Translations under genes and position numbers: made by a program
Source: a virus
Lineage: Duplodnaviria > Caudoviricetes
IMG/VR virus record: IMGVR_UViG_2974638963_000001
Location: 1-64,000 of that record
Strand: one strand, 5' to 3'
Length of the DNA stretch: 64,000 nucleotides
Shown: positions 17,225 through 62,268 of the stretch, in pieces
Position numbering within the stretch: position 1 is the stretch's first letter
Layout: every line of letters begins with the position of its first letter
Notes under the pieces: model-generated
The model's database searches: none
Told to the model about the DNA's origin: nothing
The model's input: the letters and a program-made list of their open reading frames with translations, nothing else

Positions 17225-17313
17225 TTTATATAAATATTATATCAAATATTTAGGATTTTGGCAAATGATTTAATAAAAAAGCCAAGTGGTTTCCCAGCTT
17301 GGCTTTTAAAAGA

Positions 17314-26513: not shown

Positions 26514-26600
26514 TATAAAGTCCTCAATATCTATTTAATATAAACATTATATCAAAATTGAGTCAATTATGCAAATGAATTTTCAATTAAATAACTTAAT

Positions 26601-29121: not shown

Positions 29122-29372
29122 TATTCTTCCTCACAATCTTGGCAAACAGGCTCGCAGTGCTTATCAGACATTTCTGCATATTCACAGTACCAACCACAGT
29201 TAGTACACTCAAATACTTCAGCTTCTACCAAAGCTGCTTCAAAAGTTTCTGAATCATCCTATGGTAAATTAAATTCTTTGTTAAAATCTAAACGAGCATT
29301 GAAGTTTCCGTAAGTACAAGAACCCATAACATGGTCGATTATCCAGTTATGCATATCAGATGTTATAACCAT
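29121..29372 (-). pseudogene. zinc-finger ORF interrupted by in-frame TAG
   Basis: MVITSD...FNLP*DDSE...CTNCGWYC...CQDCEEE; TAG at 29259-29261. Confidence 0.6.
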
Positions 29373-29373
29373 T

Positions 29374-29895
29374 CTAAACTCCAAATGTTGTATCTAAAAC
29401 TTGTTTAAACGCTAACAGCTCGTCGTGTGTCATATCGTCTAGGTCTTTAGGCGACTGAACACCACCATGCTTAAATTTCTTTATTAACTTAGCACCAGCA
29501 TTATCAGGATCACCTATCCAAACGAATTTTACGTTTGATTTGTTTAGTAATCGTAATAATGGCTTGTGCATTGAAGAACCTAGAACGCTTACTGCCGGAA
29601 CACCAACACTATGTAAAGCTGTAGCTCTGAAAACTGCTTCTGTAACGTATACCACTTTGGCATCTTGAGGTACTGTATCTAATCCCCAAAGAGCTGGTTC
29701 TGACGACCAAGTAAAGTATCTTGCGTTGCTTGGTTTATCCGCTTTCTTAGGTGAATCAGGAGAAAACACCTGAAAACCTACAAAACGACCATCTGTTGCG
29801 AAAAGAGGAAACGTTGCTTTGTTATTATCGAGGTCAACCCATACTTTGTGCTGGTCAGTAACTCGTTTTGCTTTAAGAGCATCTAAAACGTTCAT
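29374..29895 (-). CDS. Toprim-domain primase-like protein
   Basis: FP..GRFVGF, RYF, VTEAVF, DPDNAG, KDLDD. Confidence 0.8.
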   Translation of the reverse strand: MNVLDALKAKRVTDQHKVWVDLDNNKATFPLFATDGRFVGFQVFSPDSPKKADKPSNARYFTWSSEPALWGLDTVPQDAKVVYVTEAVFRATALHSVGVPAVSVLGSSMHKPLLRLLNKSNVKFVWIGDPDNAGAKLIKKFKHGGVQSPKDLDDMTHDELLAFKQVLDTTFGV

Positions 29896-29977
29896 TTATC
29901 AATTCCTCTCAATCAATTCAGTATAAATATTATATCAAATCTGAAAGGAATTTGCAAATGATTTTTTGCTTTTAATT

Positions 29978-30066
29978 TGGCGGTAGGAGGAGGAATCGAA
30001 CCCCCGCCGTGTCCCCACAACGTACCTGATTTCAAGTCAGGCTGCCCACCATTGGGCACTCCTACC
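29978..30066 (-). tRNA. tRNA-Ser(TGA)
   Basis: cloverleaf, long variable arm, G73, CCA. Confidence 0.9.
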
Positions 30067-30403
30067 AAATTCTTTAAACAAATAAGTCCATCAATATGTC
30101 TAGGATATCTTCCACGGCTTCTTCTTTTTCTGTTGGATGAAAGTCTCGAACATCATTACAGATGGATTCACGAACTATTAATGCATCAACTGCTGTATAT
30201 AATAGTTCTCTAAGATCTTTGTTTTTATACTTTGACATATTACCCCTTTATAGAGTTAATTATCTTAGCCGCTTCATCAGCATCATCTTTATAATAATGC
30301 TTGCTAATCAGTCTACCATCTTTAGTGACTACAGCATATTCTCTACAGGTACAAGTTTCGGGATGACATCCCCAAGAATGCCCAATATACGTTACTATTA
30401 CTA

Positions 30404-30694
30404 TTATGCGTATACCTTTCCTAGATCAACGATCTTAATCTCAACAGATATTAGAGACTGGAAGTAATCTGAGTTCCAGAAGTTATGGAATTTATGTACA
30501 GTTCCATCGTCTAGCTCTAATTCAACCATATAATCTTCAAACATCGAGTCACTACGATCAGCCGTTCTTAGAATTATTTCAGAGGCTTTCTTAGCTAATT
30601 CAATACTTTTCCATTCATAGGGAATTTCATCTACTTCATCATACGATCCGAAAGAGTTACCATCACGGTACTCAATTACAATTTTGAATCTCAT
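30404..30694 (-). CDS. hypothetical protein
   Basis: 96 aa ORF. Confidence 0.65.
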   Translation of the reverse strand: MRFKIVIEYRDGNSFGSYDEVDEIPYEWKSIELAKKASEIILRTADRSDSMFEDYMVELELDDGTVHKFHNFWNSDYFQSLISVEIKIVDLGKVYA

Positions 30695-30909
30695 TTCATC
30701 ACCTTTGCAGTATAGGTTGTTTTAAAGTAACCAGGCGTCTCAACAGTTTCCATATTCTCTGGTTTACCTAGAAATCTAGCAATAAACCCGTCACCAGCAT
30801 CGAAACCAACTGAATCACATTTACACATCCAAAATTCACCATATTCGGTAAACGTATGTGTGTCACCACAAAGTTTACAACGTTTCGTTATAGGCGTGTA
30901 CTTTTCCAT
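30691..30909 (-). CDS. small zinc-binding protein
   Basis: CKLC..CKC; start reassigned downstream of tRNA-Trp. Confidence 0.6.
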   Translation of the reverse strand: MEKYTPITKRCKLCGDTHTFTEYGEFWMCKCDSVGFDAGDGFIARFLGKPENMETVETPGYFKTTYTAKVMK

Positions 30910-30926
30910 AACAAAATCCTCTAAAT

Positions 30927-31000
30927 TGGCACGGGCTGGAGGAATCGAACCCCCGTCGTTGGGTTTGGAAGCCAAGGTAATACCACTATACGAAGCCCAT
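30927..31000 (-). tRNA. tRNA-Trp(CCA)
   Basis: loop TTCCAAA in register, A1-U72, G73. Confidence 0.8.
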
Positions 31001-31001
31001 A

Positions 31002-31559
31002 TTAATACTGATGGTATTCTATGCAATCTTCGAGCACAAATTCCATGTAATGTTCTTCACCATTTATTTCTTTAGTTACTCTAAAGAAGTTTTGGTTATA
31101 TCTGGAGATCTTGTCGAAGTATACACCATCTTGAGTAAAAGATGGCATAGATTCAACAAACTTAACAAATTTCCAGTAGTCTGCATTAAAAGGTTTGAAA
31201 ACTTCTTTTAAGTTCTGCATAGCTGTGTTAAATGCATCACGCTCTTTCTTGAATAAAGAACCTTCTTCAATCGCATCTAGCAGATAATCAACATTTAAAA
31301 GACCGTACTGTTCACCTAGAGTAGAAAGAATAACGTTATACTCAAGTTCAGATAATTCTTTAAGTTCCCAACTTGTGTGGTGTAAGTAAACACTTTCATT
31401 AGTACCAAAGTTAATTTCTTGGTCAGGTACTTTATCAAAAACTTTGATCAATTGAAGTGCTCTTTCAGCTTCTTCACCTTTTACAAGGATAAAGCCCTCA
31501 AGATCAAATTCGTCTGCATAGTTGTTTTCTGCATTAATAAGTAAAAATTTCATTTTCAT
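31002..31559 (-). CDS. hypothetical protein
   Basis: 185 aa after early promoter. Confidence 0.7.
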   Translation of the reverse strand: MKMKFLLINAENNYADEFDLEGFILVKGEEAERALQLIKVFDKVPDQEINFGTNESVYLHHTSWELKELSELEYNVILSTLGEQYGLLNVDYLLDAIEEGSLFKKERDAFNTAMQNLKEVFKPFNADYWKFVKFVESMPSFTQDGVYFDKISRYNQNFFRVTKEINGEEHYMEFVLEDCIEYHQY

Positions 31560-31632
31560 TTCCTTCTCTCTGATTCAATATAAATATTATATCAAATTAA
31601 TAAAGATTTGGCAAATGATTTTATAAATAAAA

Positions 31633-31754
31633 TGGGGTCGTAAAGGATTTGAACCTTATCACTGACTGCGGATTTACGGAGAAACCATCTAACCTAGGAA
31701 TCGAACCTAGACCTACCCTCACGCCAGTCGGATTACACCACATCCGCGTTGACC
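31633..31754 (-). ncRNA. tRNA-like RNA with two T-arms
   Basis: CTAGG-TTCGATT-CCTAG and AAGG-TTCAAAT-CCTT, CCA end, no normal anticodon arm. Confidence 0.6.
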
Positions 31755-31760
31755 ATAAAT

Positions 31761-31852
31761 TGGCAGAAGAAGTGGGAGTCGAACCCACAAGGCATATCGC
31801 TATACTCAGCTGCTTTCCAAGCAGTTCCCGTCGCCGATCGGTTTGTTCTTCT
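31761..31852 (-). tRNA. tRNA-Ser(GGA)
   Basis: loop TTGGAAA, long arm, CCA. Confidence 0.9.
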
Positions 31853-31858
31853 ATAAAT

Positions 31859-31935
31859 TGGTGGGACTAAGGAGAGTCGAACTCCTAAAATCTGCGTTCT
31901 AAGCACAGCACGTATGCCAGTTCCGTCATAGTCCC
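31859..31935 (-). tRNA. tRNA-Leu(TAG)
   Basis: loop CTTAGAA; short variable arm. Confidence 0.9.
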
Positions 31936-32071
31936 TAATCTAATTTTATACTACGTACTTCATTATTCTGTTCTGCTTTTTCCTTAGCAGCCATAAATCT
32001 TTTTAGTAGTAGATCCTTATCTCTCTTTATCTTATCAAAATCGATATTATCCATGTCTACTCCCATATGTT

Positions 32072-32148
32072 TGGTATCGAGGGCGGGGATCGAACCCGCA
32101 GAACCAGCATTTTAAGTGCTGTACGTTTGCCAATTACGTCACCTCGAC
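32072..32148 (-). tRNA. tRNA-Leu(TAA)
   Basis: loop CTTAAAA; short variable arm. Confidence 0.9.
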
Positions 32149-32333
32149 ATTAAATTATTAAATGTAAAGCTCCATGCATTGCACCACCAAGTAATCCTAC
32201 CGAGGTTGCCGCAATAACTAAGCTAGGCATACCTTTAGGCTTCTTAAATGCTGAGTATAGCCCACCTGCACCCAGGCAGGTCATTAATAAAACTAACACT
32301 AGCATTGGAGATATCATTGTTTGTTCCTAAAAT

Positions 32334-32407
32334 TGGAGCACCTTACTGGATTTTAACCAGTCTACGGAAGTTTGCAATTTCCTACCTAGTCACTCGGTCA
32401 AAGGCGC
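32334..32407 (-). tRNA. tRNA-Cys(GCA)
   Basis: loop TTGCAAA, U73. Confidence 0.85.
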
Positions 32408-32414
32408 ATTGAAT

Positions 32415-32726
32415 TTATTTTTGAGCAACGAATACTTCGATGCCTTTATCTAGCAGTTGGTCAAGTTCTACGTCAACTTTAATATCTAAGCCCTCTACAC
32501 GAGCTTTAATACCTAATGCTGTACCCGTCCACGGATATTCGTGACCATGATCGTAGTCAACGCCACCGTATTCCCAAATCATTAACTTAAACTTGATACC
32601 ATTGATCTTAACAGTATATTTCTTTTTGTCTTTGTAGTGAATATATACTGTCTCACCAGCTCCGTTAATAAAGAAGTAGCGGCGAGGTCCCCAATCTTGT
32701 TCGAACTGCATTTTAAAAAAGTTCAT
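32415..32726 (-). CDS. hypothetical protein
   Basis: start reassigned to MNFF after AAGGAG. Confidence 0.7.
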   Translation of the reverse strand: MNFFKMQFEQDWGPRRYFFINGAGETVYIHYKDKKKYTVKINGIKFKLMIWEYGGVDYDHGHEYPWTGTALGIKARVEGLDIKVDVELDQLLDKGIEVFVAQK

Positions 32727-32742
32727 AGTAAACTCCTTATAG

Positions 32743-32947
32743 AGTTGATTAAAGCTATATGTATATGGTCTCGTTGAAGCCCCTTCGGTATATTCCACGG
32801 AGCAACCGAACAACCTAGACCCTTAAGATACTGACTCGCCAAAGCCAGGTGAGAAAACCACCTCTCACATCTCTGCATACTCAGTGTATCGCAGTCTTTT
32901 TGTTGGCAGCTGGTTCTGGTCATTTATACATATACTTTAATCAACTC
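32743..32947 (-). ncRNA. candidate ~205 nt structured RNA
   Basis: ~23 bp closing stem GAGTTGATTAAAG..TATATGTATA plus four internal hairpins. Confidence 0.6.
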
Positions 32948-33113
32948 AGTTGACTAAAGGTGAGCATAGCCGAGTACTCACGTTGAATTAGTTAGATTCA
33001 TTTGTTTACGGTGCGAGCCACTTAAGGCGTCGGTTGGCGGAGCGCATTCTCCGTTCCCAACCCGTCTATGTTAGTTTCCTATGATAACTAAGCATTCTCT
33101 GCTAACATAAATT

Positions 33114-33503
33114 CTAAAATTTCCCTTCAAGAAGTAATAAGGAGAACTGCTCATTATGTCGCATAATCATCTCTTCTACTGCACTAGCCAATTCATTCTT
33201 GAAGTCAGGAGTCTGGTACAGGTCATATGCACCTAGTTGACTAGAGGCACCCTGTACCGCCTTATCCACAGCCTTTTCTAATATTGCATTTAATTGGGCA
33301 TCTGAATAACTAAAGTTGAAATGGGAGCGTGGGAAGTGAAGCTCATACTGTTTACCACAGTTGGTACATTTACCGTTCACCCAGATCTCACAGCAGCCGT
33401 CACAGCCATCACCCCCATCATAGAACGTAGTTCCGCCACAATCCTCACAAACGCATTGATACTTCTGGTCTGGTTTAGATTGTAATATCGCAGTTATTTT
33501 CAT
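33114..33503 (-). CDS. zinc-ribbon hypothetical protein
   Basis: CEDC, CTNC pairs. Confidence 0.65.
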   Translation of the reverse strand: MKITAILQSKPDQKYQCVCEDCGGTTFYDGGDGCDGCCEIWVNGKCTNCGKQYELHFPRSHFNFSYSDAQLNAILEKAVDKAVQGASSQLGAYDLYQTPDFKNELASAVEEMIMRHNEQFSLLLLEGKF

Positions 33504-33688
33504 TAGAACCTCGATGGATAAATTTCTTTCAGTTTAGACTTTACATAGCCAGTTTCATCACGAACAGCGTTTTCAAGTTGTAAAATGTAGTCATATACCG
33601 GTTTTGGTACAGCTATATGCTCGACAACACCATCACCTACTTGAACTGCTACATTACAATTACCATCTGAATACGGTCTAAAAGTCAT
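33503..33688 (-). CDS. hypothetical protein
   Basis: 61 aa after early promoter. Confidence 0.6.
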   Translation of the reverse strand: MTFRPYSDGNCNVAVQVGDGVVEHIAVPKPVYDYILQLENAVRDETGYVKSKLKEIYPSRF

Positions 33689-33756
33689 TTCTTATTTCCT
33701 CATTTCAATTTATAAATATATTATAACTGAAATTTGTGTATTTGACAATTGATTTT

Positions 33757-33966
33757 TTAATTTAATATCCGTAAACTATCAAAGGACATTAGAGGTATTT
33801 CTTTAACAGGTACTTGTTCCATCACTGGAGTCTCTTCAAATACCTTTCGATCTACAAGAACTAACTGTTTACGAGTTGTTCTTTCAGGAATCTCCATAAC
33901 TAAAATACTTGGAGATTCTAGGATAATTGGCATTCGTAACAGTGAGATCTTTGCTCTACTACGCAT
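33757..33966 (-). CDS. hypothetical protein
   Basis: 69 aa, AAGGA RBS. Confidence 0.55.
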   Translation of the reverse strand: MRSRAKISLLRMPIILESPSILVMEIPERTTRKQLVLVDRKVFEETPVMEQVPVKEIPLMSFDSLRILN

Positions 33967-33984
33967 AGTAATTATCCTTAGAGT

Positions 33985-34060
33985 TGGCGCGGGCGAGGGG
34001 ACTCGAACCCCTGCTGTACGGGTTGGAAGCCCGACCGAATAGCCGCTATCTTACGCACGC
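33985..34060 (-). tRNA. tRNA-Gly(TCC)
   Basis: loop CTTCCAA; atypical G73. Confidence 0.8.
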
Positions 34061-34374
34061 TTAAATAATTTTTTAAACAGAGTTTTTATCTCATCCCAAA
34101 GACTATTTATCTGAAAATCAGGTACAATTCTTTCTTTAGGAAACTCTGGCATCTTTGGTAACTTAATGCTCCGATTAAATTCCTGCTCGGCTTGATCTCT
34201 AGTTTTAGCTAGGCTAGAGAACAAAGTATAGGATTCACCAAGTTCATCCAGTTCCTGTAGTGTAATAGTTTGATTATCTTCTAAATAAACGAAATCAATA
34301 CCTTTCTTAGTAGTATAAACTTTACTTACTGGATACTTAAGGAGAATGTAATCCGACGCTAAGTATTTTTGCAT
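34051..34374 (-). CDS. hypothetical protein
   Basis: 107 aa; stop overlaps tRNA-Gly 5' end. Confidence 0.65.
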   Translation of the reverse strand: MQKYLASDYILLKYPVSKVYTTKKGIDFVYLEDNQTITLQELDELGESYTLFSSLAKTRDQAEQEFNRSIKLPKMPEFPKERIVPDFQINSLWDEIKTLFKKLFKRA

Positions 34375-34742
34375 TAAAAATGTACCCTTGTTAATTTGAT
34401 TCCCATGTCAGCAAGAAACTGCTCTGCTGACATCATAGATGCTGCTGCCGATGGATTAGAAGTATGAATAAAGATCTCTTCTAATCTTGGCATATCTTCA
34501 AAGAAAATTAATGCTTCAATATGAGCAAAGATGTCTTTTCCTTCGATATCTTCACCAAGATCATTATCTAGGTGAATATGTGTAATTAAGTGCTTATCTC
34601 TTTCTATGAATCGATATGCTGAACCAGAATTAGTAGCTACCAGAATCTTACTATAATGATTATTGTCTGGTAAAAACTGCATAGGTAAACGTATGTCATC
34701 TACCCACAATAATAATTTATCTCTGACCACGAATAACCTCAC
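34374..34742 (-). CDS. cyclic-phosphate-processing receiver-domain protein
   Basis: LWVDDIR.P, LDNDLG, IHTSNP motifs. Confidence 0.7.
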   Translation of the reverse strand: MRLFVVRDKLLLWVDDIRLPMQFLPDNNHYSKILVATNSGSAYRFIERDKHLITHIHLDNDLGEDIEGKDIFAHIEALIFFEDMPRLEEIFIHTSNPSAAASMMSAEQFLADMGIKLTRVHF

Positions 34743-34835
34743 TTGTAGTATCTAGCGCAGGTATTTTAACCATACCTACATCGTGGAACGTTGCCATAAT
34801 AATTATAACTACTAGAGTAATAACTGTTATATATT

Positions 34836-35018
34836 TCATTTAACTAACTCGATAGGTTGCTTACCATCCCAGTTAGAATCTGCTAGGACACGCTTGTAGA
34901 ATAAATAACCAATGTCACCTTGATCTTGTGGATTAGTAATGACTTTGCCTACATCCTTATCTGAAAAGTAAAATGCTTTTGCTGCGTCTGAACCTACGGA
35001 TAACTTGAAAGTTTCCAT
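34836..35018 (-). CDS. hypothetical protein
   Basis: 60 aa, GGAGGT RBS. Confidence 0.6.
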   Translation of the reverse strand: METFKLSVGSDAAKAFYFSDKDVGKVITNPQDQGDIGYLFYKRVLADSNWDGKQPIELVK

Positions 35019-35037
35019 AAAACCTCCGTTTATAAAT

Positions 35038-35122
35038 TGGCGGGCGGTGTAGGATTTGAACCTACGTTGTCCTTTCGAACACGGATTAACAGTCCGTCGC
35101 TAAACCACTCAGCTAACCACCC
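35038..35122 (-). tRNA. tRNA-Asn(GTT)
   Basis: loop CTGTTAA, G73; long variable arm. Confidence 0.9.
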
Positions 35123-35128
35123 TTAAAT

Positions 35129-35205
35129 TGGTACTGCGACCTGGGTTTGAACCAGGGAACCTCTCGATTATCAGTCAAGCGCTCTACCAACTGAGCTATC
35201 GCAGT
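35129..35205 (-). tRNA. tRNA-Ile(GAT)
   Basis: loop CTGATAA. Confidence 0.95.
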
Positions 35206-35311
35206 ATTAATTGTAAGAACACTCTTCGAATGCTCTTACAGTTAATTTTGTAAAACTAACTGGTGCACTCCTTTTCAAAGGATTTGGGTAAGCACGTACC
35301 CTCACGGTGTT

Positions 35312-35501
35312 TGGCGTTCTGGAACGGGGGTCGAACCCGCAAATACTAAGATCCTCATTCCTACTCACTGGTCTGCGTAGTCCAGCCCCTCGGTGCTATT
35401 GGATTCTTTTCTTCTGTACCCGAACCTAGTTACTATTTTAACCTCACAGCCTCAATCCACGCAGATGAAAGAGCTAAGCAACCTAGTTGTACAACCAGAC
35501 C
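35312..35501 (-). ncRNA. ~190 nt RNA with tRNA-like acceptor/T-arm/CCA (tmRNA-like topology)
   Basis: GGTCTGG/CCAGAAC-G-CCA, T arm GCGGG-TTCGACC-CCCGT, internal stem TCTGCGTGG/CTACGCAGA. Confidence 0.65.
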
Positions 35502-35507
35502 ATAATT

Positions 35508-35585
35508 TGGCACTGTAGAAGGGAGTCGAACCCTCAATGCTCCACCTTGAAAGGGTGGTGACTTTACCAGTTTGTCCACTACAGT
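35508..35585 (-). tRNA. tRNA-Glu(TTC)
   Basis: loop CTTTCAA. Confidence 0.9.
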
Positions 35586-35665
35586 ATAATCTAACTAAGA
35601 CTTGTAGGTCTGTTTCCACGGCTTAATTATCCGATTTGTCTCTACTCATTTACAAGTCTTAAAAT

Positions 35666-35750
35666 TGGTGCAGGATCGTGGACTCGAACCACGGAACCCC
35701 GAGGGGTGAAGATTTACAGTCTCCTGTCATTGCCGCTAGACTAATCCTGC
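35666..35750 (-). tRNA. tRNA-Tyr(GTA)
   Basis: loop CTGTAAA, long arm. Confidence 0.95.
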
Positions 35751-35839
35751 TTAATTCATTTTATTAATTTCTTCTCTCAATTCAATATAAATATTATAAC
35801 AAATATTTTGGTATTTAACAATTGAATTTTTAAATAATT

Positions 35840-35915
35840 TGGAGCACACTACAGGATTCGAACCTGTGACCACTTCGTTCGTAGCGAAGAACTCTGTCCA
35901 CTGAGTTAAGCATGC
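35840..35915 (-). tRNA. tRNA-Arg(ACG)
   Basis: loop CTACGAA. Confidence 0.9.
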
Positions 35916-36082
35916 TTTTTATCTTTCCTTTGAGATCGTCTAAAACCTGTACCCTGGCAAGTCTCACATTCCCAAGTGTTATACTGAGTATCACCAGGCT
36001 CTGCATCATTTACTTCGCCCAAACCACGACATTCTGGACATTTACAGGCTTTTAACGCTTCTAGTAGTTCTAGGTATTTCAT
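35906..36082 (-). CDS. 58 aa DnaJ-type zinc-finger protein (below ORF-track cutoff)
   Basis: CPECRGLG and CETCQGTG; AAGGA RBS. Confidence 0.65.
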   Translation of the reverse strand: MKYLELLEALKACKCPECRGLGEVNDAEPGDTQYNTWECETCQGTGFRRSQRKDKKHA

Positions 36083-36097
36083 AGAATTTCCTTAAAT

Positions 36098-36173
36098 TGG
36101 TGCTGACGACAGGCATCGAACCTGCGACCTGATGCTTACAAGGCAACTGCTCTACCAACTGAGCTACGTCAAC
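36098..36173 (-). tRNA. tRNA-Thr(TGT)
   Basis: loop CTTGTAA. Confidence 0.95.
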
Positions 36174-36178
36174 GAATT

Positions 36179-36252
36179 TGGTACTCGCTGGAGGAATCGA
36201 ACCACCGCTTAGTCCGTGTAAAGGACTAGCACTACCGTTATACTAAGCGAGT
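36179..36252 (-). tRNA. tRNA-Val(TAC)
   Basis: loop TTTACAC. Confidence 0.9.
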
Positions 36253-36253
36253 A

Positions 36254-36460
36254 TTAAATATGCCCTGCTTTCTTTAACTGTCTTTCCATATATTTCTGAC
36301 AGACTTTTTGCAGGTATCCGGATTTTGTATGTTCATACAGGACTCTCATTTTATTATGATATAGGGCAACCCCATCTTCACGAGTAGCTGTATAAACCAT
36401 AGTAACCATTCCGTATTTAGGCTCTGAGAGCCTGTAATTAAAACTTATTTTCTTAGACAT
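36254..36460 (-). CDS. hypothetical protein
   Basis: 68 aa, AGGAG RBS. Confidence 0.6.
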   Translation of the reverse strand: MSKKISFNYRLSEPKYGMVTMVYTATREDGVALYHNKMRVLYEHTKSGYLQKVCQKYMERQLKKAGHI

Positions 36461-36477
36461 GTAAGTCTCCTATAAAA

Positions 36478-36555
36478 TGGGGTGACGGACGGGACTTGAA
36501 CCCGCACATTCCCGAATCACAATCGGGGGCATTAAACCAATTCTGCTACCGCCAC
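36478..36555 (-). tRNA. tRNA-His(GTG)
   Basis: loop TTGTGAT, C73; encoded -1 base is T. Confidence 0.9.
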
Positions 36556-36695
36556 ATCTAAGAGACCTCGTAAAGTGTCTTAGATGTAGGCGATAAAGCC
36601 TACACTAGATTTATGAATGCTCTTGTCAGTCACGAACATTGGAACATTACCGTTAATCTACAACGCCGCAAGCACCCCCTCACGGTGGAGACTTC

Positions 36696-36770
36696 TGGTG
36701 CACCATAGTGGTATCGAACCACTCTATCAGGCTCTTCAAACCTGCGCTAATCCATCTCAGCTAACGGTGC
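36696..36770 (-). tRNA. tRNA-Phe(GAA)
   Basis: loop TTGAAGA. Confidence 0.9.
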
Positions 36771-36775
36771 GTATT

Positions 36776-36852
36776 TGGCAGGTATGACGGGGATCGAACC
36801 CGCTATCTCCGCAGTGACAGTGCGGTGTCTTGTCCATTTCGACCTCATACCT
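36776..36852 (-). tRNA. tRNA-Asp(GTC)
   Basis: loop CTGTCAC. Confidence 0.95.
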
Positions 36853-36858
36853 ATTGTT

Positions 36859-36934
36859 TGGTGGAGAAAAGGGGATTTGAACCCCTAACCGTCTGCTTGC
36901 AAAGCAGGTGCTCTACCAATTGAGCTACATCCCC
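36859..36934 (-). tRNA. tRNA-Ala(TGC)
   Basis: loop TTTGCAA, G3-U70. Confidence 0.95.
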
Positions 36935-36941
36935 ATAAATT

Positions 36942-37018
36942 TGGTCTCGAATAAAGGATTTGAACCTTTGACCCCACCGCCCCAAACGGCGTACTCTACC
37001 AGACTGAGCTAATCCGAG
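36942..37018 (-). tRNA. tRNA-Pro(TGG)
   Basis: loop TTTGGGG. Confidence 0.9.
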
Positions 37019-37230
37019 ATAATTTCACTACCTAGTTCGATATGAGCTATTTCTAGACGATCACCACGTTCCCAATCATCACACTGCATATCAACCTTTT
37101 CAAATATGAAGTCTTGACTTTCTTGACTAGTCATAGACTTCAAACTTTCAAATTCTTCATCAGTCAAAGATACTTCTGATGTTACTTCAATAACTTCTGT
37201 TGCATATACTTTATAAACACGTTTAGTCAT
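37009..37230 (-). CDS. hypothetical acidic protein
   Basis: start reassigned to MTKRV. Confidence 0.65.
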   Translation of the reverse strand: MTKRVYKVYATEVIEVTSEVSLTDEEFESLKSMTSQESQDFIFEKVDMQCDDWERGDRLEIAHIELGSEIISD

Positions 37231-37311
37231 TTTTATTTCCTTTCTCAAGTTTATAAATATATTATACAGTATATTTAAGCATTTAGCAACTGATTTAATA
37301 AACTTTTTGCT

Positions 37312-37461
37312 CTACGCTAAGTTATAAATAAGTGAACTTATTTGGTCAGCACTTACTGAGAATAGTAAGGCATATACTGACTGGTCGTATCGCTCACCTA
37401 GTCTAACAAATATTAGTTTACCAGTGCCTTTATTTCTAGCAATGTATATTACATCATCCAT
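37312..37461 (-). CDS. hypothetical protein
   Basis: start reassigned to MDDV after GAGGT. Confidence 0.55.
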   Translation of the reverse strand: MDDVIYIARNKGTGKLIFVRLGERYDQSVYALLFSVSADQISSLIYNLA

Positions 37462-37476
37462 AAAGACCTCAGAAAT

Positions 37477-37570
37477 TGGAGGAAGAAGCGGGGCTCGAAC
37501 CCGCACACCGTCTTTCGACAGCTACTAACTGTTTAGCAAACAGTTCCCTTACCATTAGGGTTACTCTTCC
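37477..37570 (-). tRNA. tRNA-Ser(GCT)
   Basis: loop TTGCTAA, long arm. Confidence 0.9.
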
Positions 37571-37752
37571 TCTGTGTAAAACTTTAGTTCAGCTATTAAC
37601 TGCTGCATTTTAGCTTTTCGCTTATCATATCCAGCTTCCGGTTTTTCCGCATGTGCCTTATCTAATAGATCTAACATAACCTCAGCTAACGCTAGGGCGG
37701 CAAAACTCATTTTATTGATGCTTTCTTTAGCACCTAGTTTATCGTGTTCCAT
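37561..37752 (-). CDS. hypothetical protein
   Basis: 63 aa. Confidence 0.6.
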   Translation of the reverse strand: MEHDKLGAKESINKMSFAALALAEVMLDLLDKAHAEKPEAGYDKRKAKMQQLIAELKFYTEEE

Positions 37753-37796
37753 AATTTTATCCTATATTTTAATCCTGCGCCCCAGAGCTACAGTGT

Positions 37797-38270
37797 TTAG
37801 TAATCGTCGTCAAATTCGATTTCTTCGTTTAGGTTTTCGCTATTCGAGATAACGTGAACCCCAACATTAAATACCCTAGACAAATATTCTGCAATAAGCT
37901 GAGCCTCCTCAACTTTACAATTAACTTCATCGTAGAAGATGATCTCGCCTTTAGCATTGATATAACTTTGCTTAGTTATCTGGTACAGATCAGGCATTAA
38001 GTAATGGATAAAGTCCCACTCGTCAATCTGATCTTCAGTAAGGCTAGGTGCACCAGCAATTACGATACCTTTCTTAATCCATTCACGAAATACAGTTTCG
38101 ATATAGTCATAGTCTACGCTATCGTAGCAATGAGCAAATGGAACAAGATTAATATCTACTTCTGGGTGCTCTTCACACTCAATGCGCCAACCTGAGGCAT
38201 AACCGCCACCACAAGTCTCGCAGTCCATACTGTCGTGCAAACGAGTTACCCTAACATAAATCTGACCCAT
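37797..38270 (-). CDS. hypothetical protein
   Basis: start reassigned to MGQIY (upstream part of ORF is tRNA-Lys); DCETCG motif. Confidence 0.7.
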   Translation of the reverse strand: MGQIYVRVTRLHDSMDCETCGGGYASGWRIECEEHPEVDINLVPFAHCYDSVDYDYIETVFREWIKKGIVIAGAPSLTEDQIDEWDFIHYLMPDLYQITKQSYINAKGEIIFYDEVNCKVEEAQLIAEYLSRVFNVGVHVISNSENLNEEIEFDDDY

Positions 38271-38287
38271 TGTATCTCCTAGAAAAG

Positions 38288-38363
38288 TGGTACGCCGTAT
38301 AGGAGTCGAACCTACAACCTCGGGATTAAAAATCCCTTGCTCTGCCAATTGAGCTAACGACGC
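38288..38363 (-). tRNA. tRNA-Lys(TTT)
   Basis: loop TTTTTAA. Confidence 0.95.
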
Positions 38364-38364
38364 T

Positions 38365-38680
38365 GAAATTAATTAAGGTTGATTTCCCTGTACCCTGGCA
38401 GAGGTAAACTAAGCCACCACAGCTTAGAACTTCTTTGAGACGGTCTTGCGAAGAAATTAGTCACCTAGTTATTCACACTCACCGTTTCAAGGAGTAAATG
38501 TTACTAGAACTGGTATGAGGTACGCTCTTTCTCACCACTCGAGCTGCTGTAGGGACTCGAACCCTACAGAGCATAGGTTTACCCTCTAAACTGTATCTTC
38601 GCCCGTTTCGTGCTTGCCACACGCTCGTATCGGACTCTGTAATAACTCAAAGATTTCAGGAAAATCACTTAATTAATCTC
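38365..38680 (-). ncRNA. candidate ~315 nt structured RNA
   Basis: own promoter (38696-38724), long closing stem, internal T-loop hairpin, no ORF. Confidence 0.65.
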
Positions 38681-38804
38681 GATTTCATAAAATATATTAT
38701 ATCAATAAATTAAGCACTTGACAAGTAATTTTTTAAAATATTTACTAGAGAGCTAATGACTAACTATCTAGTAAATATCCCCTCTTTCGAGGGGATATCA
38801 TTAA

Positions 38805-40539: not shown

Positions 40540-40920
40540 TTAACCCGCTAACGCGTATAAATCACCTGCTAACAGCTCATGGGATTCACCAGTCTGACCG
40601 TGCGTTACGCCCATGATAACAACATCTTCATCTTCGCCACCCTGTTTAACTTGTTCAGCCATAACAGTGAATACATGGATTGCGTTATCATTTAAATCGC
40701 CATTCTCGATTGCGAAGATAACATCTTCCATCATCAGAGTTGCTTCGCCATCTTCGCTTGGAACTACGATGAACCAATCTTCTAGCATACCCTCTGCGAT
40801 TGCAAAACGCATAAATTCAACAACGTCTTGTGGAGTCTCAATATTGATACCTTGATTTTCAAGCTCAGCGGTCATAACAGCAGAGATAACGCCAGCGATT
40901 TTAACAGTTACTTTAGACAT
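40540..40920 (-). CDS. hypothetical acidic protein
   Basis: 126 aa after early promoter. Confidence 0.7.
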   Translation of the reverse strand: MSKVTVKIAGVISAVMTAELENQGINIETPQDVVEFMRFAIAEGMLEDWFIVVPSEDGEATLMMEDVIFAIENGDLNDNAIHVFTVMAEQVKQGGEDEDVVIMGVTHGQTGESHELLAGDLYALAG

Positions 40921-40995
40921 ATTTTATTTCCTTTTGGATTGATTAATTTATAAGATATATTATACAGAATAATTCAGTATTTGGCAATTGAATTT

Positions 40996-41373
40996 TTAAT
41001 TATTAAACCCTGAGTCTACTAAATCGTATACCATATAGGCTGTTAGACTAACGCTAGTATCTTTATATGAGGATGAGAATACTACTTCATTATCAGATAC
41101 GGCGTGCACTTTTAGTAAAGTGTATAGTTGTAAAAAGAAAGTCACAGCTTCCGGAGTATAGTTGTTGTTCCTAGCAATTTCTACAGCTGATGGCATTAAC
41201 ATAGATACTGCCAGTGGTTCTCTCAATTTATATACAACTACATTATCTAATGACTCTACAAAGTCATACACAGTGGTTTCTTGTTCATCCCAGCCATATT
41301 CAGTCGCTAGTTCTTGTATAACTATATCAAAGTATTCGGGAATTGCTTCTTTTCCTGACATCAGTACCCTCAC
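40996..41373 (-). CDS. hypothetical protein
   Basis: ORF. Confidence 0.65.
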   Translation of the reverse strand: MRVLMSGKEAIPEYFDIVIQELATEYGWDEQETTVYDFVESLDNVVVYKLREPLAVSMLMPSAVEIARNNNYTPEAVTFFLQLYTLLKVHAVSDNEVVFSSSYKDTSVSLTAYMVYDLVDSGFNN

Positions 41374-41389
41374 TAATAAATATAAAAAT

Positions 41390-41464
41390 TGGCGTCCCCT
41401 ATAGGATTCGAACCTATGTATATCGGTTTAGAAGACCGATGCCTATCCTCTAGACTAAGGGGAC
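41390..41464 (-). tRNA. tRNA-Arg(TCT)
   Basis: loop CTTCTAA. Confidence 0.9.
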
Positions 41465-41471
41465 TTGAAAA

Positions 41472-41720
41472 TTAATCTTCAGGATCTAAATCTGTCTCTA
41501 CCATGGTGATAGTTACTTCTTCTGTGTCACCACTATCGGTTTGGCGCGAACCTTTACCCGTATCAGTAATAATCAGATTGAACAGTTCTTCGTCTGTAAG
41601 TGTGATAGCGTAGTCCGCTAGCAAAATTACTTGGATATCCCCAGGGGTTGCAAGTTCACCATCTACGATAAAGTGCTCAGGTGATTTATCTTTGCTAGTG
41701 ATATTAAATAGTAAATTCAT
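41472..41720 (-). CDS. hypothetical acidic protein
   Basis: 82 aa, AAGGA RBS. Confidence 0.65.
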   Translation of the reverse strand: MNLLFNITSKDKSPEHFIVDGELATPGDIQVILLADYAITLTDEELFNLIITDTGKGSRQTDSGDTEEVTITMVETDLDPED

Positions 41721-41798
41721 TTGTTGTTCCTTTTAAGTTAAAATTAGTGAGCAGTTTTGGAGATGCTCAGCTCCACGGTTTCCCAAGGTAGTAGGGAA

Positions 41799-42197
41799 TT
41801 AAGTTAATTCGATCCAATTTTCATTGGAAATGTTCTGACCGTACACACCGCCATAGAAGTAGGTATCTTCCCCAGGAAGTACGATATTACCACCGTAGTA
41901 CCCGTTATGTTCTGTACGACATTCCATATCCATGATACCGGTAGAGGTTAGTAATTTACAACCATAACGGTCTGTAACGTCACCGTATTCTGCATGGATA
42001 GAATCTAGAGTATAGTCCTCAATGCCTTGAATAACAAACGGCATTTTTACAGGTAATTCAACGTGTTGGAAGAAGCTACTAGCGCAACAATCTCCGTCTA
42101 CACGAATAATTAAATCTTCACCAGTATCTGTTACTAACTTGACAGCTAGATCATCGGATGCTAGAAATACCTGTACAATACATTTTCCGATTAACAT
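41799..42197 (-). CDS. hypothetical phage protein
   Basis: DCC...NGYYGG motifs. Confidence 0.75.
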   Translation of the reverse strand: MLIGKCIVQVFLASDDLAVKLVTDTGEDLIIRVDGDCCASSFFQHVELPVKMPFVIQGIEDYTLDSIHAEYGDVTDRYGCKLLTSTGIMDMECRTEHNGYYGGNIVLPGEDTYFYGGVYGQNISNENWIELT

Positions 42198-42214
42198 TTT
42201 ATGTTCCTCTTAAA

Positions 42215-42890
42215 GTTGAATTGGTAATGGGTTTAGGCTTTCTTCGTCTATATACAGTACGGTTACTAGTATTGTATGCATATTAAGTAGTGCCAGCGAA
42301 TGCTTAGCTTATAAGCCTCAGTTATCCTATTCTTTAACCACCTAGATGAACTAGACAGCCCAGTGTTATAACATAAGCGAGTTCGACACACCCATTTCGG
42401 GAAATACTCTACACTTTTTCCAGATACCCATCTTAGGTATTCCACCTAGGTCGGAGGTAGCCTCTCCTTTTATCCGGTGTGCTACGAGCAAAGTAGATCC
42501 CGAAATGGGGAGTGATCAATTCCTCATTTCCAAGTTAAGTACTTGGGACTCAATAGCCTAGTTCGCGACCTAGACTACTTATTCGTTGTTTTCACACATC
42601 ATGCTCCACGGGTGGAGGAATCGAACCTCTCTAGAGCGCTATTTCCCAGAATCCCGTATCTTCGCAGTTTTTGTGTTACTTACTTATTTTAGTCACTACT
42701 CCTTGAACCACATATACCACCCAGGTATACGTGGCGGGGCAGTAACAAAGGCAGAGTTTAGTGGTAGATTTAACTTACCAACATATTCTCTCAGATCTTG
42801 TACAGTGTGCGTTAGACCTCAGCGTAGTATGCCCGCTGTGCCTCTTATTAAATCGTACTTTTAGACTTAATTGCCGTGTTCCGATTCAAT
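42215..42890 (-). ncRNA. candidate ~670 nt large structured RNA
   Basis: own promoter (42897-42925), paired ends, many nested stems, T-loop, no sense-strand ORF. Confidence 0.7.
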
Positions 42891-42937
42891 ATAAATATTA
42901 TATCAAATAATAAATCAAATGGCAATTGATTTTTTAA

Positions 42938-43222
42938 TTATTTTATTTCGAACCCTGCAACTAGAGAATCTAGAGTTTCTAGAAACTTTAACGTTTCATT
43001 ACGTTCTGCATACAAGCGCTGGCGTTCTGCATCAAGTATATCAGTTATAGCCTGTAGCACCTCAGGGCGTAAATCCCCATGCCTAAACTCAGTTCCGAAT
43101 ATGTATGGACTTACTCCTACTCCGGAATTAATTTTATGGGCTGTTACTAACGCTTTGCCTACCCTATCTAGGACTCTCTCAAGAAACTCCTGGTGTAGTT
43201 GAACTTCTTTAACTGTTTTCAT
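42938..43222 (-). CDS. hypothetical protein
   Basis: 94 aa. Confidence 0.65.
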   Translation of the reverse strand: MKTVKEVQLHQEFLERVLDRVGKALVTAHKINSGVGVSPYIFGTEFRHGDLRPEVLQAITDILDAERQRLYAERNETLKFLETLDSLVAGFEIK

Positions 43223-43229
43223 TAAACAC

Positions 43230-43664
43230 CTACTTAGTGATTAGTGGTAAAACTGAACGAGCTACAGAGCTAGCTAACTTACCGTCGTATTGACCTAAGC
43301 GACGTGCTTTTAGAGTAGCCATAAGCTCACCTAAGTTTTCAGCACCTGCACACTCTTTTGTGAAGAAGTCATACAGATCATCCTCAGTCATTTGTACTGG
43401 TAACATACTTGTCAAAAGTTTTACGTACAGAGGGTCAGCTTCATATACTTGACCACTTAAAGCTGCCTTAGATCTAGTATCTTCTATAGCTTTTAACTGA
43501 GATTTAGCCCAAGTAATCATTTGATCACGAGAAACAAAATCTTTGCCAAATTTGTATTCTAAGTCACTGATGGCTGTAGAAACCACTTTAACCCATGCAG
43601 TGTCTTTACGTAAACGTGCTTGAAGCATTTCAGCTCGCAGGAAGTCTAACATTGACTCTTCCAT
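43230..43664 (-). CDS. GatB/YqeY-domain protein
   Basis: LPVQMTEDDL, LGELMATLK....GQYDGKLAS. Confidence 0.8.
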   Translation of the reverse strand: MEESMLDFLRAEMLQARLRKDTAWVKVVSTAISDLEYKFGKDFVSRDQMITWAKSQLKAIEDTRSKAALSGQVYEADPLYVKLLTSMLPVQMTEDDLYDFFTKECAGAENLGELMATLKARRLGQYDGKLASSVARSVLPLITK

Positions 43665-43665
43665 T

Positions 43666-44103
43666 TTATTTTCCTTTTAGTGAATAGAAACGGTGTCCAC
43701 CAATCTTCTCAATGAAATCCAACCTAGAATGATAAGCTAAAGGTTTTCCACTATGGAAGAATAGTGCATCGGGTACTGTCTCAGTAATATTACCAAAGTG
43801 GTAAGATACCATTGCTACTGCCTTAGATCTTATCCACATTTTAGGTTCTCTAATCGGGTATTTATGTGCCGTCCAAGAGAACTGGTACTTTTGGTATATT
43901 ACTCCGCAGTGTGTCGTAGGCTTAAATACTTTACTGTCTACTCGGTTATTTGTAACCTCAGCAACAGCAAATAATCCTCTAAGCGGCTCAGCTCTAGCCT
44001 CGTAGTAAATGTTCTCAGTAAGGCAAGTAACTTGAGGATTATCAGCTAGGCTAGGGACATTAGCCATTAACATCCCTAGTGTAAATGCTAGTTCAGGAGC
44101 CAT
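43666..44103 (-). CDS. SleB-like cell wall hydrolase
   Basis: CLTENIYYEARAE, QFSW, IGGHRFY. Confidence 0.85.
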   Translation of the reverse strand: MAPELAFTLGMLMANVPSLADNPQVTCLTENIYYEARAEPLRGLFAVAEVTNNRVDSKVFKPTTHCGVIYQKYQFSWTAHKYPIREPKMWIRSKAVAMVSYHFGNITETVPDALFFHSGKPLAYHSRLDFIEKIGGHRFYSLKGK

Positions 44104-44480
44104 TAAAGACCCTTTTGCTCCATCAGACGTAACGCAGCATCGTTATCAGAGGCTACTCGTCCACCTGTGGCGCGGTCTAAAATACGCAGTATCTTACGAA
44201 TACCTGCTTCACGAACCTGAGCACGTTCTACAAGACGTTCCATTTTGCGATGAATCAATTTAGGACTTACCATACGACCACCAGCGTATTTAGACGCACG
44301 ACCCGCCTCATCGCGCATACGAATCATTTTCGCATAGTTAAATACGTTTTGTGCTTGTTCCGCTGTTAAGCCGTATCCAGTCATTAATCCAGCAATACTA
44401 GAAGTGTCTACACCATCTAATTCATCATAGGTGATTAGGTCAGCTTTAGTACCTGCTAATTGAGTTTCTTGTTTAGTCAT
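44103..44480 (-). CDS. hypothetical protein
   Basis: 125 aa. Confidence 0.7.
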   Translation of the reverse strand: MTKQETQLAGTKADLITYDELDGVDTSSIAGLMTGYGLTAEQAQNVFNYAKMIRMRDEAGRASKYAGGRMVSPKLIHRKMERLVERAQVREAGIRKILRILDRATGGRVASDNDAALRLMEQKGL

Positions 44481-44491
44481 TTTTGTTATCC

Positions 44492-45220
44492 TTAGTTAAT
44501 TGCGTCAGTTAAAATTGCATGGCTTAAGTGAGCTTCTGCTAATGCGTCGAATAATGCATCATGATAATTCGGTACTAGGTCAAAGTGTTCAATCAAAGAC
44601 TTAGGAAGATTTGAGAATACCCATTTAGCATATTCTTCAGCATTCTTCACTAAATACCCGTAGGTTTCTGGACTGAAACGCTGTCTTGCCAGCCATTTAA
44701 GCGTTCTTGCAGATCCCACTTCTGTAAACCTGTACACCTTATGGTCAGGAAAGTGCAGATCGAAGATACCCATGTCAAACTCTGGTCCATTTCCTAGTAC
44801 GTGAGGTTCTTTACCTAGGTGTCTACGGAAAATTTGTGATACATCTTCGAACTGCCTGCTTCCGATAAACGACATAGTGCTGCCAGTATTAAATACATCA
44901 TTAAGCACAGGACCTACCATCGCGTATAAAGGTTCTGCGTTATTCCAGGTACGCAACTGAGACTCTCGTACAGCCTGAGCTATACGTTCAGATGTAAGCC
45001 ACCAGTTCTCTGTATCTGGGTCTGAGTGAAAATTCCCACTATCAACCTGAGACATAACACCCATCTTACCAATAAATAAGTACGGAAGTTCATGCTCTGG
45101 TACTATTGCGGCAAACGCAAATGTAGTCATGATAGGAATCAGTCCTGCAAATGCTGCTTCTTTAGGTCGAGATCTGGTCTCGATATCTAGAGCAGCCACT
45201 GTTTTGGTTAGAGCTTTCAT
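44492..45220 (-). CDS. DEDDh 3'-5' exonuclease-family protein
   Basis: LDIET, GNGPEFD, HDALFDA. Confidence 0.75.
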   Translation of the reverse strand: MKALTKTVAALDIETRSRPKEAAFAGLIPIMTTFAFAAIVPEHELPYLFIGKMGVMSQVDSGNFHSDPDTENWWLTSERIAQAVRESQLRTWNNAEPLYAMVGPVLNDVFNTGSTMSFIGSRQFEDVSQIFRRHLGKEPHVLGNGPEFDMGIFDLHFPDHKVYRFTEVGSARTLKWLARQRFSPETYGYLVKNAEEYAKWVFSNLPKSLIEHFDLVPNYHDALFDALAEAHLSHAILTDAIN

Positions 45221-62170: not shown

Positions 62171-62268
62171 CCGTGCTTTTCAGTGCGGTTTTTATTTACT
62201 TGCATTTTGCTTAAATTTTTGATATAATATTTATATTGAATAGGTAATATATCAAAGGGGATTAATAA

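Follow-up and report, generated by a model that had tools for sequence, protein, structure and literature searches.

In the part of the window considered here (the window being the whole 64,000-nt stretch of phage DNA that was analyzed), all genes and all 25 tRNAs are carried by the minus strand. Between two of the minus-strand ORFs, at 41799-42197 and 42938-43222, lie 740 bases (positions 42198 to 42937) without a credible gene. What does this interval encode, and what might its product do? The original prediction saw in it a large structured noncoding RNA (ncRNA) by the tRNA cluster, a claim now upheld by a covariation-supported fold and by homology to RNAX. We conclude with high confidence that the stretch encodes the Priunavirus form of RNAX, a large multidomain structured ncRNA of T5-like phages, and hold this identity and the proposed fold, taken jointly, to be very probably correct.

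Locus, promoter, and coding potential

The interval 42198-42937 is the longest between 11 and 52 kb to lack a minus-strand ORF of at least 70 amino acids or a tRNA, in agreement with its earlier description as the largest gene-free stretch of the early region. The promoter attributed to it is also present, with 11 of 12 matches. The elements that delimit the RNA and its neighborhood are as follows.

43230..43664, minus strand: YqeY-like gene (Pfam/PHROG assignment)
42897..42925, minus strand: early sigma-70 promoter, with -35 TTGCCA, a 17-nt spacer, and an extended -10 TGnTATAAT (11/12 matches, TG present)
42198..42225, minus strand: 3' tail of the RNA, which enters the ribosome-binding site AAGAGG (42209-42214) of the DUF7448 ORF (start 42197) without a terminator
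41390..41464, minus strand: tRNA-Arg(tct)

From the position of the promoter, transcription probably starts near 42890. The promoter is invariant among the relatives of the phage and aligns with promoter P16-17 of T5/BF23. It belongs to a module of about 55 bp present in eight copies in the 118.5-kb genome, which bears direct terminal repeats; the seven copies besides that of RNAX make the repeated module fit a family of early promoters, as judged by sequence. Downstream, no minus-strand terminator was found from the 3' end of the RNA to position 41300, suggesting that the RNA makes up the first ~670 nt of a longer primary transcript, which would extend into the DUF7448 gene, a small ORF, and tRNA-Arg(UCU). 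The order of elements in the window, i.e., YqeY-like gene, own early promoter, RNA, and tRNA-Arg(UCU) unit, is that of the RNAX slot of T5-like phages, with a 94-aa ORF preceding the promoter and two ORFs separating the RNA from tRNA-Arg.

Six small ORFs of 25 to 92 amino acids, distributed over both strands, cross the interval. None of them is kept across the relatives: stops or frameshifts interrupt every one in the Proteus phages and the majority even in Providencia phage PSTCR5, whereas the nucleotide blocks remain conserved. None begins with ATG, and no ribosome-binding site was seen ahead of any of them when the sequence was read by eye. On this comparison 42198-42937 is noncoding, none of its ORFs being conserved, and the search for conserved short-ORF coding leaves the original noncoding claim standing.

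Relationship to the RNAX of T5-like phages

By blastn, the stretch matched only Providencia phage PSTCR5 (82% identity) and the Proteus Novosibvirus phages (about 71%), in whose records it is left without annotation or given only small, dubious ORFs. The syntenic region in T5-like phages was located by way of the neighboring YqeY-like gene, which is separated there from tRNA-Arg(UCU) by 0.64 to 1.1 kb of gene-free DNA. Conserved blocks in this region are collinear in 13 phages from at least six lineages (Tequintavirus, Epseptimavirus, Klebsiella/Enterobacter/Pectobacterium phages, Priunavirus, and Novosibvirus). GenBank annotates it as a misc_RNA, rnaX/RNAX (T5s08), a "stable RNA with unknown functions," in T5, BF23, and DT57C. 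The T5 entry (NC_005859, 40848-41566, with promoter P16-17) has been present in the genome record since about 2004, and that of BF23 is found in AJ604530. Rfam contains no family for RNAX, and no paper that names it or gives its fold or function was retrieved by the literature searches, which covered RNAX and the stable and noncoding RNAs of T5.

Homology between the two groups was detected in both directions. An nhmmer profile of the window clade matched Eps7 (E = 1e-11) and T5, and a profile made from T5-like phages only matched both halves of the window core (E = 3.6e-6 and 3.2e-5). A covariance model, CM R1, built from 11 T5-like sequences only with the window clade left out, returned 42289-42397 on the minus strand as its top hit in the 64 kb, aligned over the full model (positions 1 to 155) with 66.1 bits (E = 4.4e-15); neither nhmmer nor the covariance model found paralogues of the core within the window. 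A profile of domain 1 (see below) from T5-like phages alone fails to detect the window, the homology of this domain resting on short invariant blocks and on the pairing of helices P1 and P2. The YqeY proteins encoded next to the RNA are only ~30 to 47% identical between subfamilies that share long invariant RNA blocks.

The closest known system is the RNAX of T5, BF23, DT57C, and DT571/2. T5-type RNAX and the window RNA occupy the same slot, have the same block order, and share homologous helices P1, P2, Pa, and Pb with compensatory changes. The Providencia-phage RNA is therefore a rearranged variant of an annotated, uncharacterized RNA and not a new class. The suggestion that it might be an analogous or new large RNA class holds insofar as the RNA matches no Rfam family and sits in a setting like that of GOLLD and ROOL, but the RNA was already annotated as rnaX in the three phages above.

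The comparison with GOLLD, ROOL, OLE, and intron models that the original prediction had proposed was run and gave no match. With cmscan of positions 41000 to 44000 at E values up to 10, only tRNA-Arg and noise were recovered, with no hit to GOLLD, ROOL, OLE, HEARO, or raiA; in the whole window at gathering thresholds Rfam detected only tRNAs, and in the RNAX regions of T5 and Eps7 it found nothing except tRNAs even at permissive thresholds. Group I and II introns, RNase P RNA, tmRNA, and 6S RNA gave no Rfam match, and ARAGORN did not call a tmRNA either. An RNase P-like reading, raised by the resemblance of GAUAACUGAGGCUUAU and GAAGAAAGCC to P4 strands, was rejected: the strands are in the wrong order, the GGCUUAU...AAGC segment is the covarying hairpin Pb, and there is no Rfam hit.

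GOLLD and ROOL are large phage RNAs encoded close to tRNA islands. One part of them is conserved and another variable, and in GOLLD the linker sometimes contains tRNAs (bioRxiv 10.1101/2024.12.08.627333). RNAX resembles them in being longer than 600 nt, multidomain, and phage encoded by tRNA islands, in combining conserved with poorly conserved parts, and, among its relatives, in containing a tRNA or tRNA-like piece, as the GOLLD linker sometimes does. In contrast, its helices and conserved sequences are different, and the RNAX hosts here are Enterobacterales (Morganellaceae). The likeness is thus one of setting and layout only.

RNAX, at 0.6 to 1.1 kb, occurs in several hundred T5-like phage records from Escherichia, Salmonella, Klebsiella, Proteus, Providencia, Pectobacterium, and other hosts. 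A 29-nt core pattern had 34 hits in IMG/VR, all on T5-like phage contigs of 103 to 123 kb, while 11 of its 12 hits in metagenomes carry T5-like core sequence, one new soil lineage (L087) included. Among 185,579 prokaryote genomes there was one hit, which is without the conserved flanks and appears to be a chance match. When IMG/VR was scanned with exact 14-mers and 23-mers, only known isolates plus chance hits came up. As far as the searches reach, RNAX appears confined to T5-like phages (Demerecviridae). In complete genomes of Vibrio T5-like phages neither the pattern nor the covariance model found the core, though the YqeY-like gene is kept; the idea of a YqeY-RNAX ribonucleoprotein is weakened by these phages, as is that of any obligatory link between the two.

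Fold and modular architecture

From 5' to 3', the RNA is divided as follows.

42850..42887, minus strand: 5' hairpin, GAAUCG (42882-42887) paired with CGAUUU (42850-42855); all 6 pairs formed in each of 5 sequences, without double changes
42743..42849, minus strand: domain 1, closed by helix P1 (5' strand 42840-42849, 3' strand 42743-42752)
42820-42838, minus strand: P2 hairpin of domain 1, CAGCG-GGCAUACUA-CGCUG
42793-42819, minus strand: covarying hairpin of domain 1 (alignment A2)
42753-42760, minus strand: invariant UAAACUCU of domain 1, which also contains the block GAGAGAAUAUGUUGG
42688..42742, minus strand: variable long hairpin of the MFE fold, of low confidence, its sequence not conserved and aligning poorly
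42603..42665, minus strand: tRNA-like element, with GCGAAGAUAC, a short acceptor-like stem ACGGG/CCCGU, and a T-arm
42617-42627, minus strand: T-loop of the tRNA-like element, GGUUCGAUUCC
42547..42584, minus strand: palindromic-loop hairpin, loop GUCGCGAA (42562-42569) followed by UUGAGU, with covarying stem AGUAGUCUAG/CUAGGCUAUU
42530..42546, minus strand: hairpin CCAAG-UACUUAA-CUUGG (helix 7), 6 pairs, 2 compensatory (CCCAAG/CUUGGG to CCCUAA/UUAGGG)
42384..42518, minus strand: inserted domain, with a closing 19-pair helix of UGAUCACUCCCCAUUUCGGGAU (42497-42518) and UUCCCGAAAUGGGUGUGUCG (42384-42403)
42289..42397, minus strand: domain 2, the universal RNAX core (CM R1, nhmmer, covariation), with conserved blocks GGGUGUGUCGAA and AUUCGCUGGCACUAC
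42368-42381 with 42317-42330, minus strand: helix Pa, with conserved C.C and G.G mismatches
42335-42367, minus strand: Pa cap, a 26-nt hairpin where T5-like phages have a tRNA-like element
42302-42316, minus strand: hairpin Pb of domain 2
42226..42288, minus strand: variable hairpin region and conserved 3' block GAAGAAAGCCUAAACCC (42230-42246) (core alignment)

The core provides the strongest covariation. The window has the GGGGUGUsGAA block, Pa with its C.C and G.G mismatches, Pb, and yCGCwG, and in the family-wide alignment 99.4% of the cells of the 12 pairs of Pa are paired, 7 of these pairs with compensatory changes. Domain 2 as a whole is 90% paired, compared to 34 to 42% when the partners are slid, and none of 500 shuffles reaches its covariation. 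In the proposed fold, invariant unpaired blocks flank Pa, and Pb and the GCCUAAACC block come after it. The RNA of the window stops ~30 nt past GCCUAAACC, and within the 3' block GCyWAAACC is conserved family-wide. Candidate tertiary pairings among the invariant unpaired blocks, proposed by eye (UAAACUCU/AGAGU, GCCUAAACC/GGUGGGUU, and B2/T-loop), did not hold across lineages.

Domain 1 likewise has its RNAX features in the window, with P1 enclosing CAGCG-N9-CGCUG, GAAUAGArU, and UAAACUCU (alignment A2, pair counts). P1 and P2 are 98.5% paired against 27 to 58% with the partners slid, and again no shuffle out of 500 attains their covariation score. DT57C-type phages have lost the interior of domain 1 but retain P1 as a bare hairpin capped by UAAU, and in other phages an HNH homing-endonuclease gene lies between domains 1 and 2 with the core still kept. 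The survival of P1 without its interior and the endonuclease gene between the domains indicate that the RNA is modular, with domain 2 as its universal core. Both the minus-strand fold (z = -4.1) and that of the plus strand (z = -6.0) exceed shuffles in stability, so that fold stability alone is weak proof and covariation carries the argument.

Between domain 1 and the core, a lineage-specific domain of ~210 nt is inserted. The stem of its UCGCGA-loop hairpin (helix 6) has 9 pairs, 2 with double changes, and four further covarying helices with double changes (helices 9 to 12) lie at 42411-42489. Of the closing 19-pair helix (helix 8), 18 pairs are invariant across five phages; as this helix never varies, covariation does not bear on its pairing. 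Its 3' strand doubles as the start of the core block GGGUGUGUCGAA, among the most conserved of RNAX. For the window-clade helices as a whole, 81 predicted pairs are 95% paired, compared to 32 to 39% when slid, and 16 pairs have double changes, figures that derive from only five sequences of two or three lineages with the structure predicted from the same alignment.

These data allow the pairings first proposed for the stretch to be sorted. The covariation check suggested at the time shows that Pa, P1/P2, and the window-clade helices keep pairing through double changes, and the several hairpins noted then are real. The two strands of the 12-bp helix 42391-42402/42498-42509 are perfectly complementary and belong to the 19-pair helix, and the T-loop placed at 42614-42630 is GGUUCGAUUCC at 42617-42627. 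Three long-range pairings fared less well. The stem 42284-42291/42574-42581 is a perfect 8 bp in the window but competes with a local hairpin kept in every relative, which itself covaries (AGUAGU/GCUAUU in the window, AGUAUA/UAUACU in the Proteus phages). The stem 42348-42354/42558-42564, a perfect 7 bp in the window, shares bases with the invariant CUAG/CUAG stem of the hairpin with the UCGCGA loop, which every relative likewise keeps. Finally, 8 of the 10 positions of the helix thought to join the 5' and 3' ends pair in the window, but the helix was not found in Stubb or PL1, and in all five relatives its 5' strand pairs locally (42882-42887/42850-42855) in the 5' hairpin, itself found only in the window, PSTCR5, and the Proteus-phage forms.

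The window RNA and T5 RNAX differ mainly in their movable parts. The window adds the ~210-nt inserted domain and the extra 5' hairpin. Its Pa cap is a 26-nt hairpin whereas T5-like, Klebsiella, Enterobacter, and Pectobacterium phages have a tRNA-like cap; in T5 this cap scores 35.5 bits with the Rfam tRNA model (threshold, 29), ARAGORN calls it a tRNA in DT57C and DU_PP_V, and the cap part of CM R1 finds genuine tRNAs. The tRNA-like cap is absent in Eps7 as well and is hence a common, not universal, RNAX feature.

The window has instead a truncated tRNA-like acceptor/T-arm piece, which lies ~250 nt upstream. The likeness of this element to tRNA is limited to a canonical T-loop and a short acceptor-like stem: 42603-42665 is not called a tRNA by ARAGORN, nor by the Rfam tRNA model at E values up to 10, and no D-arm, anticodon arm, or 3' CCA was seen in its sequence and fold read by eye. 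The 10-mer GCGAAGAUAC and the T-arm recur on the minus strand at noncoding 38530-38610. Overall, the association between RNAX and a tRNA-like module is recurrent but positionally flexible.

The ~400-nt 3' domain of T5-type RNAX, which reaches tRNA-Arg, is absent from the window, where two ORFs intervene, while in T5 tRNA-Arg directly follows the RNA. Two short hairpin motifs of this 3' domain recur in the inserted domain of the window clade: TCGCG(N0-2)AAC..TTGAGT, common to both domains, and the palindromic-loop hairpin GGGA-AGUCAUGAC-CCC, which recurs in the inserted domain of the Proteus phages only. An nhmmer profile revealed no wider similarity between the two domains. The notion that the T5 3' domain is "circularly permuted" into the inserted domain was set aside, as it came down to these two motifs with no similarity at the profile level, and we retain it as a motif-level observation.

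Possible roles of RNAX

The sequence features lend themselves to a mode of action in trans, which we put forward tentatively. The strong sigma-70 promoter of its own, as seen in the sequence, would drive early transcription of RNAX; tRNA-type processing, by RNase P at the tRNA-like element or at the downstream tRNA, may help to set the RNA ends; and the mature RNA may be a stable scaffold or decoy that acts in trans by engaging, through its invariant unpaired blocks and tRNA-like module, some conserved factor of the tRNA or translation machinery, whether of host or phage origin. Such a trans-acting stable RNA is the reading we favor, although it falls well short of being probable.

An unlikely competitor is that the ~670 nt are a 5' untranslated or processing leader, with no role in trans, that stabilizes the early transcript or guides its cleavage and sets how strongly the downstream cargo is expressed, the cargo being the DUF7448 ORF and tRNA-Arg in this phage and tRNA-Arg itself in T5. 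RNAX heads the tRNA-Arg transcription unit in all lineages, and in the window there is neither a defined 3' end nor a minus-strand terminator before the next ORF, whose ribosome-binding site lies within ~15 nt. At 19 pairs, the closing helix of the inserted domain has about the length that a substrate of RNase III must have. Against a leader, the downstream cargo varies among lineages while the core is kept, including in the phages with a homing-endonuclease gene between domains 1 and 2; the size, multidomain build, and invariant unpaired blocks go beyond the needs of known leaders; and the GenBank annotation is of a stable RNA.

Somewhat more doubtful still is that RNAX forms a homo-oligomer through self-complementary hairpin loops, as do OLE, ROOL, and GOLLD, with the RNA-only assembly as the working unit. 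GOLLD and ROOL form nanocages held by kissing loops (bioRxiv 10.1101/2024.12.08.627333), and two conserved RNAX loops are palindromic, UCGCGA (window 42562-42569 and T5 3' domain) and GUCAUGAC (Proteus phages and T5), on stems that differ between lineages; the arms of the 12-bp helix could also pair intermolecularly. However, there is no sequence or Rfam similarity to OLE, ROOL, or GOLLD, the GUCAUGAC hairpin is missing from the window and PSTCR5, and palindromic loops are no more than suggestive. Taken to its furthest, by analogy, RNAX could be a third, independently evolved self-assembling ornate phage RNA, joined by its UCGCGA and GUCAUGAC loops, that displays or encloses tRNA-like modules and disrupts host tRNA-directed processes, e.g., anticodon-nuclease defenses, a scenario we regard as improbable.

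Whatever its mode of action, phage tRNAs counter host tRNA-cleaving defenses, the T5 tRNA-Lys countering PARIS (PMC11464382), which makes a conserved tRNA-associated RNA at the head of a tRNA island a candidate player in this conflict. The T5 deletions of the PARIS study (29191-32442 and 30661-38625; PMC11464382) stop short of rnaX (40848-41566) if numbered as NC_005859, and are thus silent on whether RNAX is dispensable.

That the stretch consists of decayed tRNA genes and spacer with chance hairpins is very improbable. A T-arm remnant is present at 42617-42627, further tRNA-like fragments occur in the tRNA island, deletions elsewhere in the tRNA-gene region are tolerated by T5 (PMC11464382), and some phages no longer have the interior of domain 1; but helices that are not those of a tRNA (Pa, P1, Pb, and those of the inserted domain) keep pairing by compensatory changes, long blocks are invariant across subfamilies despite the divergence of the adjacent YqeY proteins, and the promoter is RNAX's own and conserved. 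The covariation counts already contradict decay. Least credible of all is translation of one or more of the short ORFs into a functional small protein, there being candidates of 25 to 92 amino acids on both strands but all of them interrupted in the Proteus phages, mostly in PSTCR5 too, with no ATG or ribosome-binding site seen.

The Providencia and Proteus forms are informative in that they separate the universal parts of the molecule (domain 2, P1, and P2) from its movable modules, to which belong the interior of domain 1, the tRNA-like element, and the inserted or 3' domain. This division is what the design of deletions requires. RNAX may be a proteobacterial counterpart of GOLLD and ROOL, and if the self-assembling reading were true, T5, a classical tractable coliphage, could offer the first such RNA with a testable function.

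Promoter module and mosaic boundary

The alignment of positions 41000-44900 of the window with Providencia phage PSTCR5 reveals a sharp mosaic boundary at the promoter of RNAX, the large structured noncoding RNA of T5-like phages. From 42900 to 44900, the two sequences are 99-100% identical. Identity drops to 70-97% across the RNAX stretch and to 72-81% in the DUF7448 ORF, is about 50% at 41000-41700 (i.e., unrelated sequence), and returns to 83-100% below 41000. This pattern suggests a recombination event whose breakpoint lies at the RNAX promoter or close to it. As far as can be judged from sequence, the following ORF would be cotranscribed with RNAX:

41799-42197, minus strand, DUF7448 protein ORF directly downstream of RNAX (Pfam E 1.4e-19; PHROG 2650)

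The ~55-bp module that drives RNAX has seven further copies (77-86% identity), several of them in the tRNA island. They look like an early promoter family.

Further copies of the RNAX promoter module, by similarity
31569-31626, minus strand, module copy
29916-29967, minus strand, module copy
35780-35833, minus strand, module copy
38680-38736, minus strand, module copy
17228-17271, minus strand, module copy
26533-26586, minus strand, module copy
62200-62244, plus strand, module copy

Natural variants of RNAX

DT57C (positions 1550-1600 of sequence L042) and three other RNAX-bearing sequences (L053, L055, and L081) are natural deletion variants, in which the entire interior of domain 1, the 5' part of RNAX, is missing and its closing helix P1 is kept as a UAAU-capped hairpin. 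Some Epseptimavirus-type phages have an HNH/AP2-type homing-endonuclease ORF that stops a few bases ahead of the RNAX core (domain 2) and separates it from domain 1. For falkor, bux, and 2-3, GenBank likewise lists HNH genes under the same region. An example from an IMG/VR T5-like contig, L077, is:

~330 nt directly upstream of the 29-nt core pattern at 830-858, minus strand, HNH/AP2-type homing-endonuclease ORF

A divergent RNAX lineage is represented by soil/rhizosphere metagenome contig Ga0157373_10257919 (L087; 1234 nt, too short to place), which carries domain 1 and the first part of the core; the gene upstream differs and is not YqeY-like.

tRNA-like pieces and the helix-plus-tRNA-cap unit

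A second tRNA-like piece sits in another gene-free, promoter-driven stretch, upstream of tRNA-Lys:

38530-38610, minus strand, tRNA-like piece (GCGAAGAUAC and, after a gap of about 30 nt, a T-arm of 8 bp)

On the minus strand, the exact 10-mer GCGAAGAUAC occurs only in this piece and in the tRNA-like element at 42603-42665, and the two are paralogous. In Pectobacterium phage DU_PP_V (NC_047887), the whole core model, i.e., the covariance model of domain 2, weakly matched positions 41855-42006 on the minus strand (25.7 bits, E 8e-5), which correspond to a tRNA-Arg with its flanks, downstream of RNAX. A possible origin of the "helix plus tRNA cap" unit, hinted at by this match, is the duplication of a tRNA together with its flanks.
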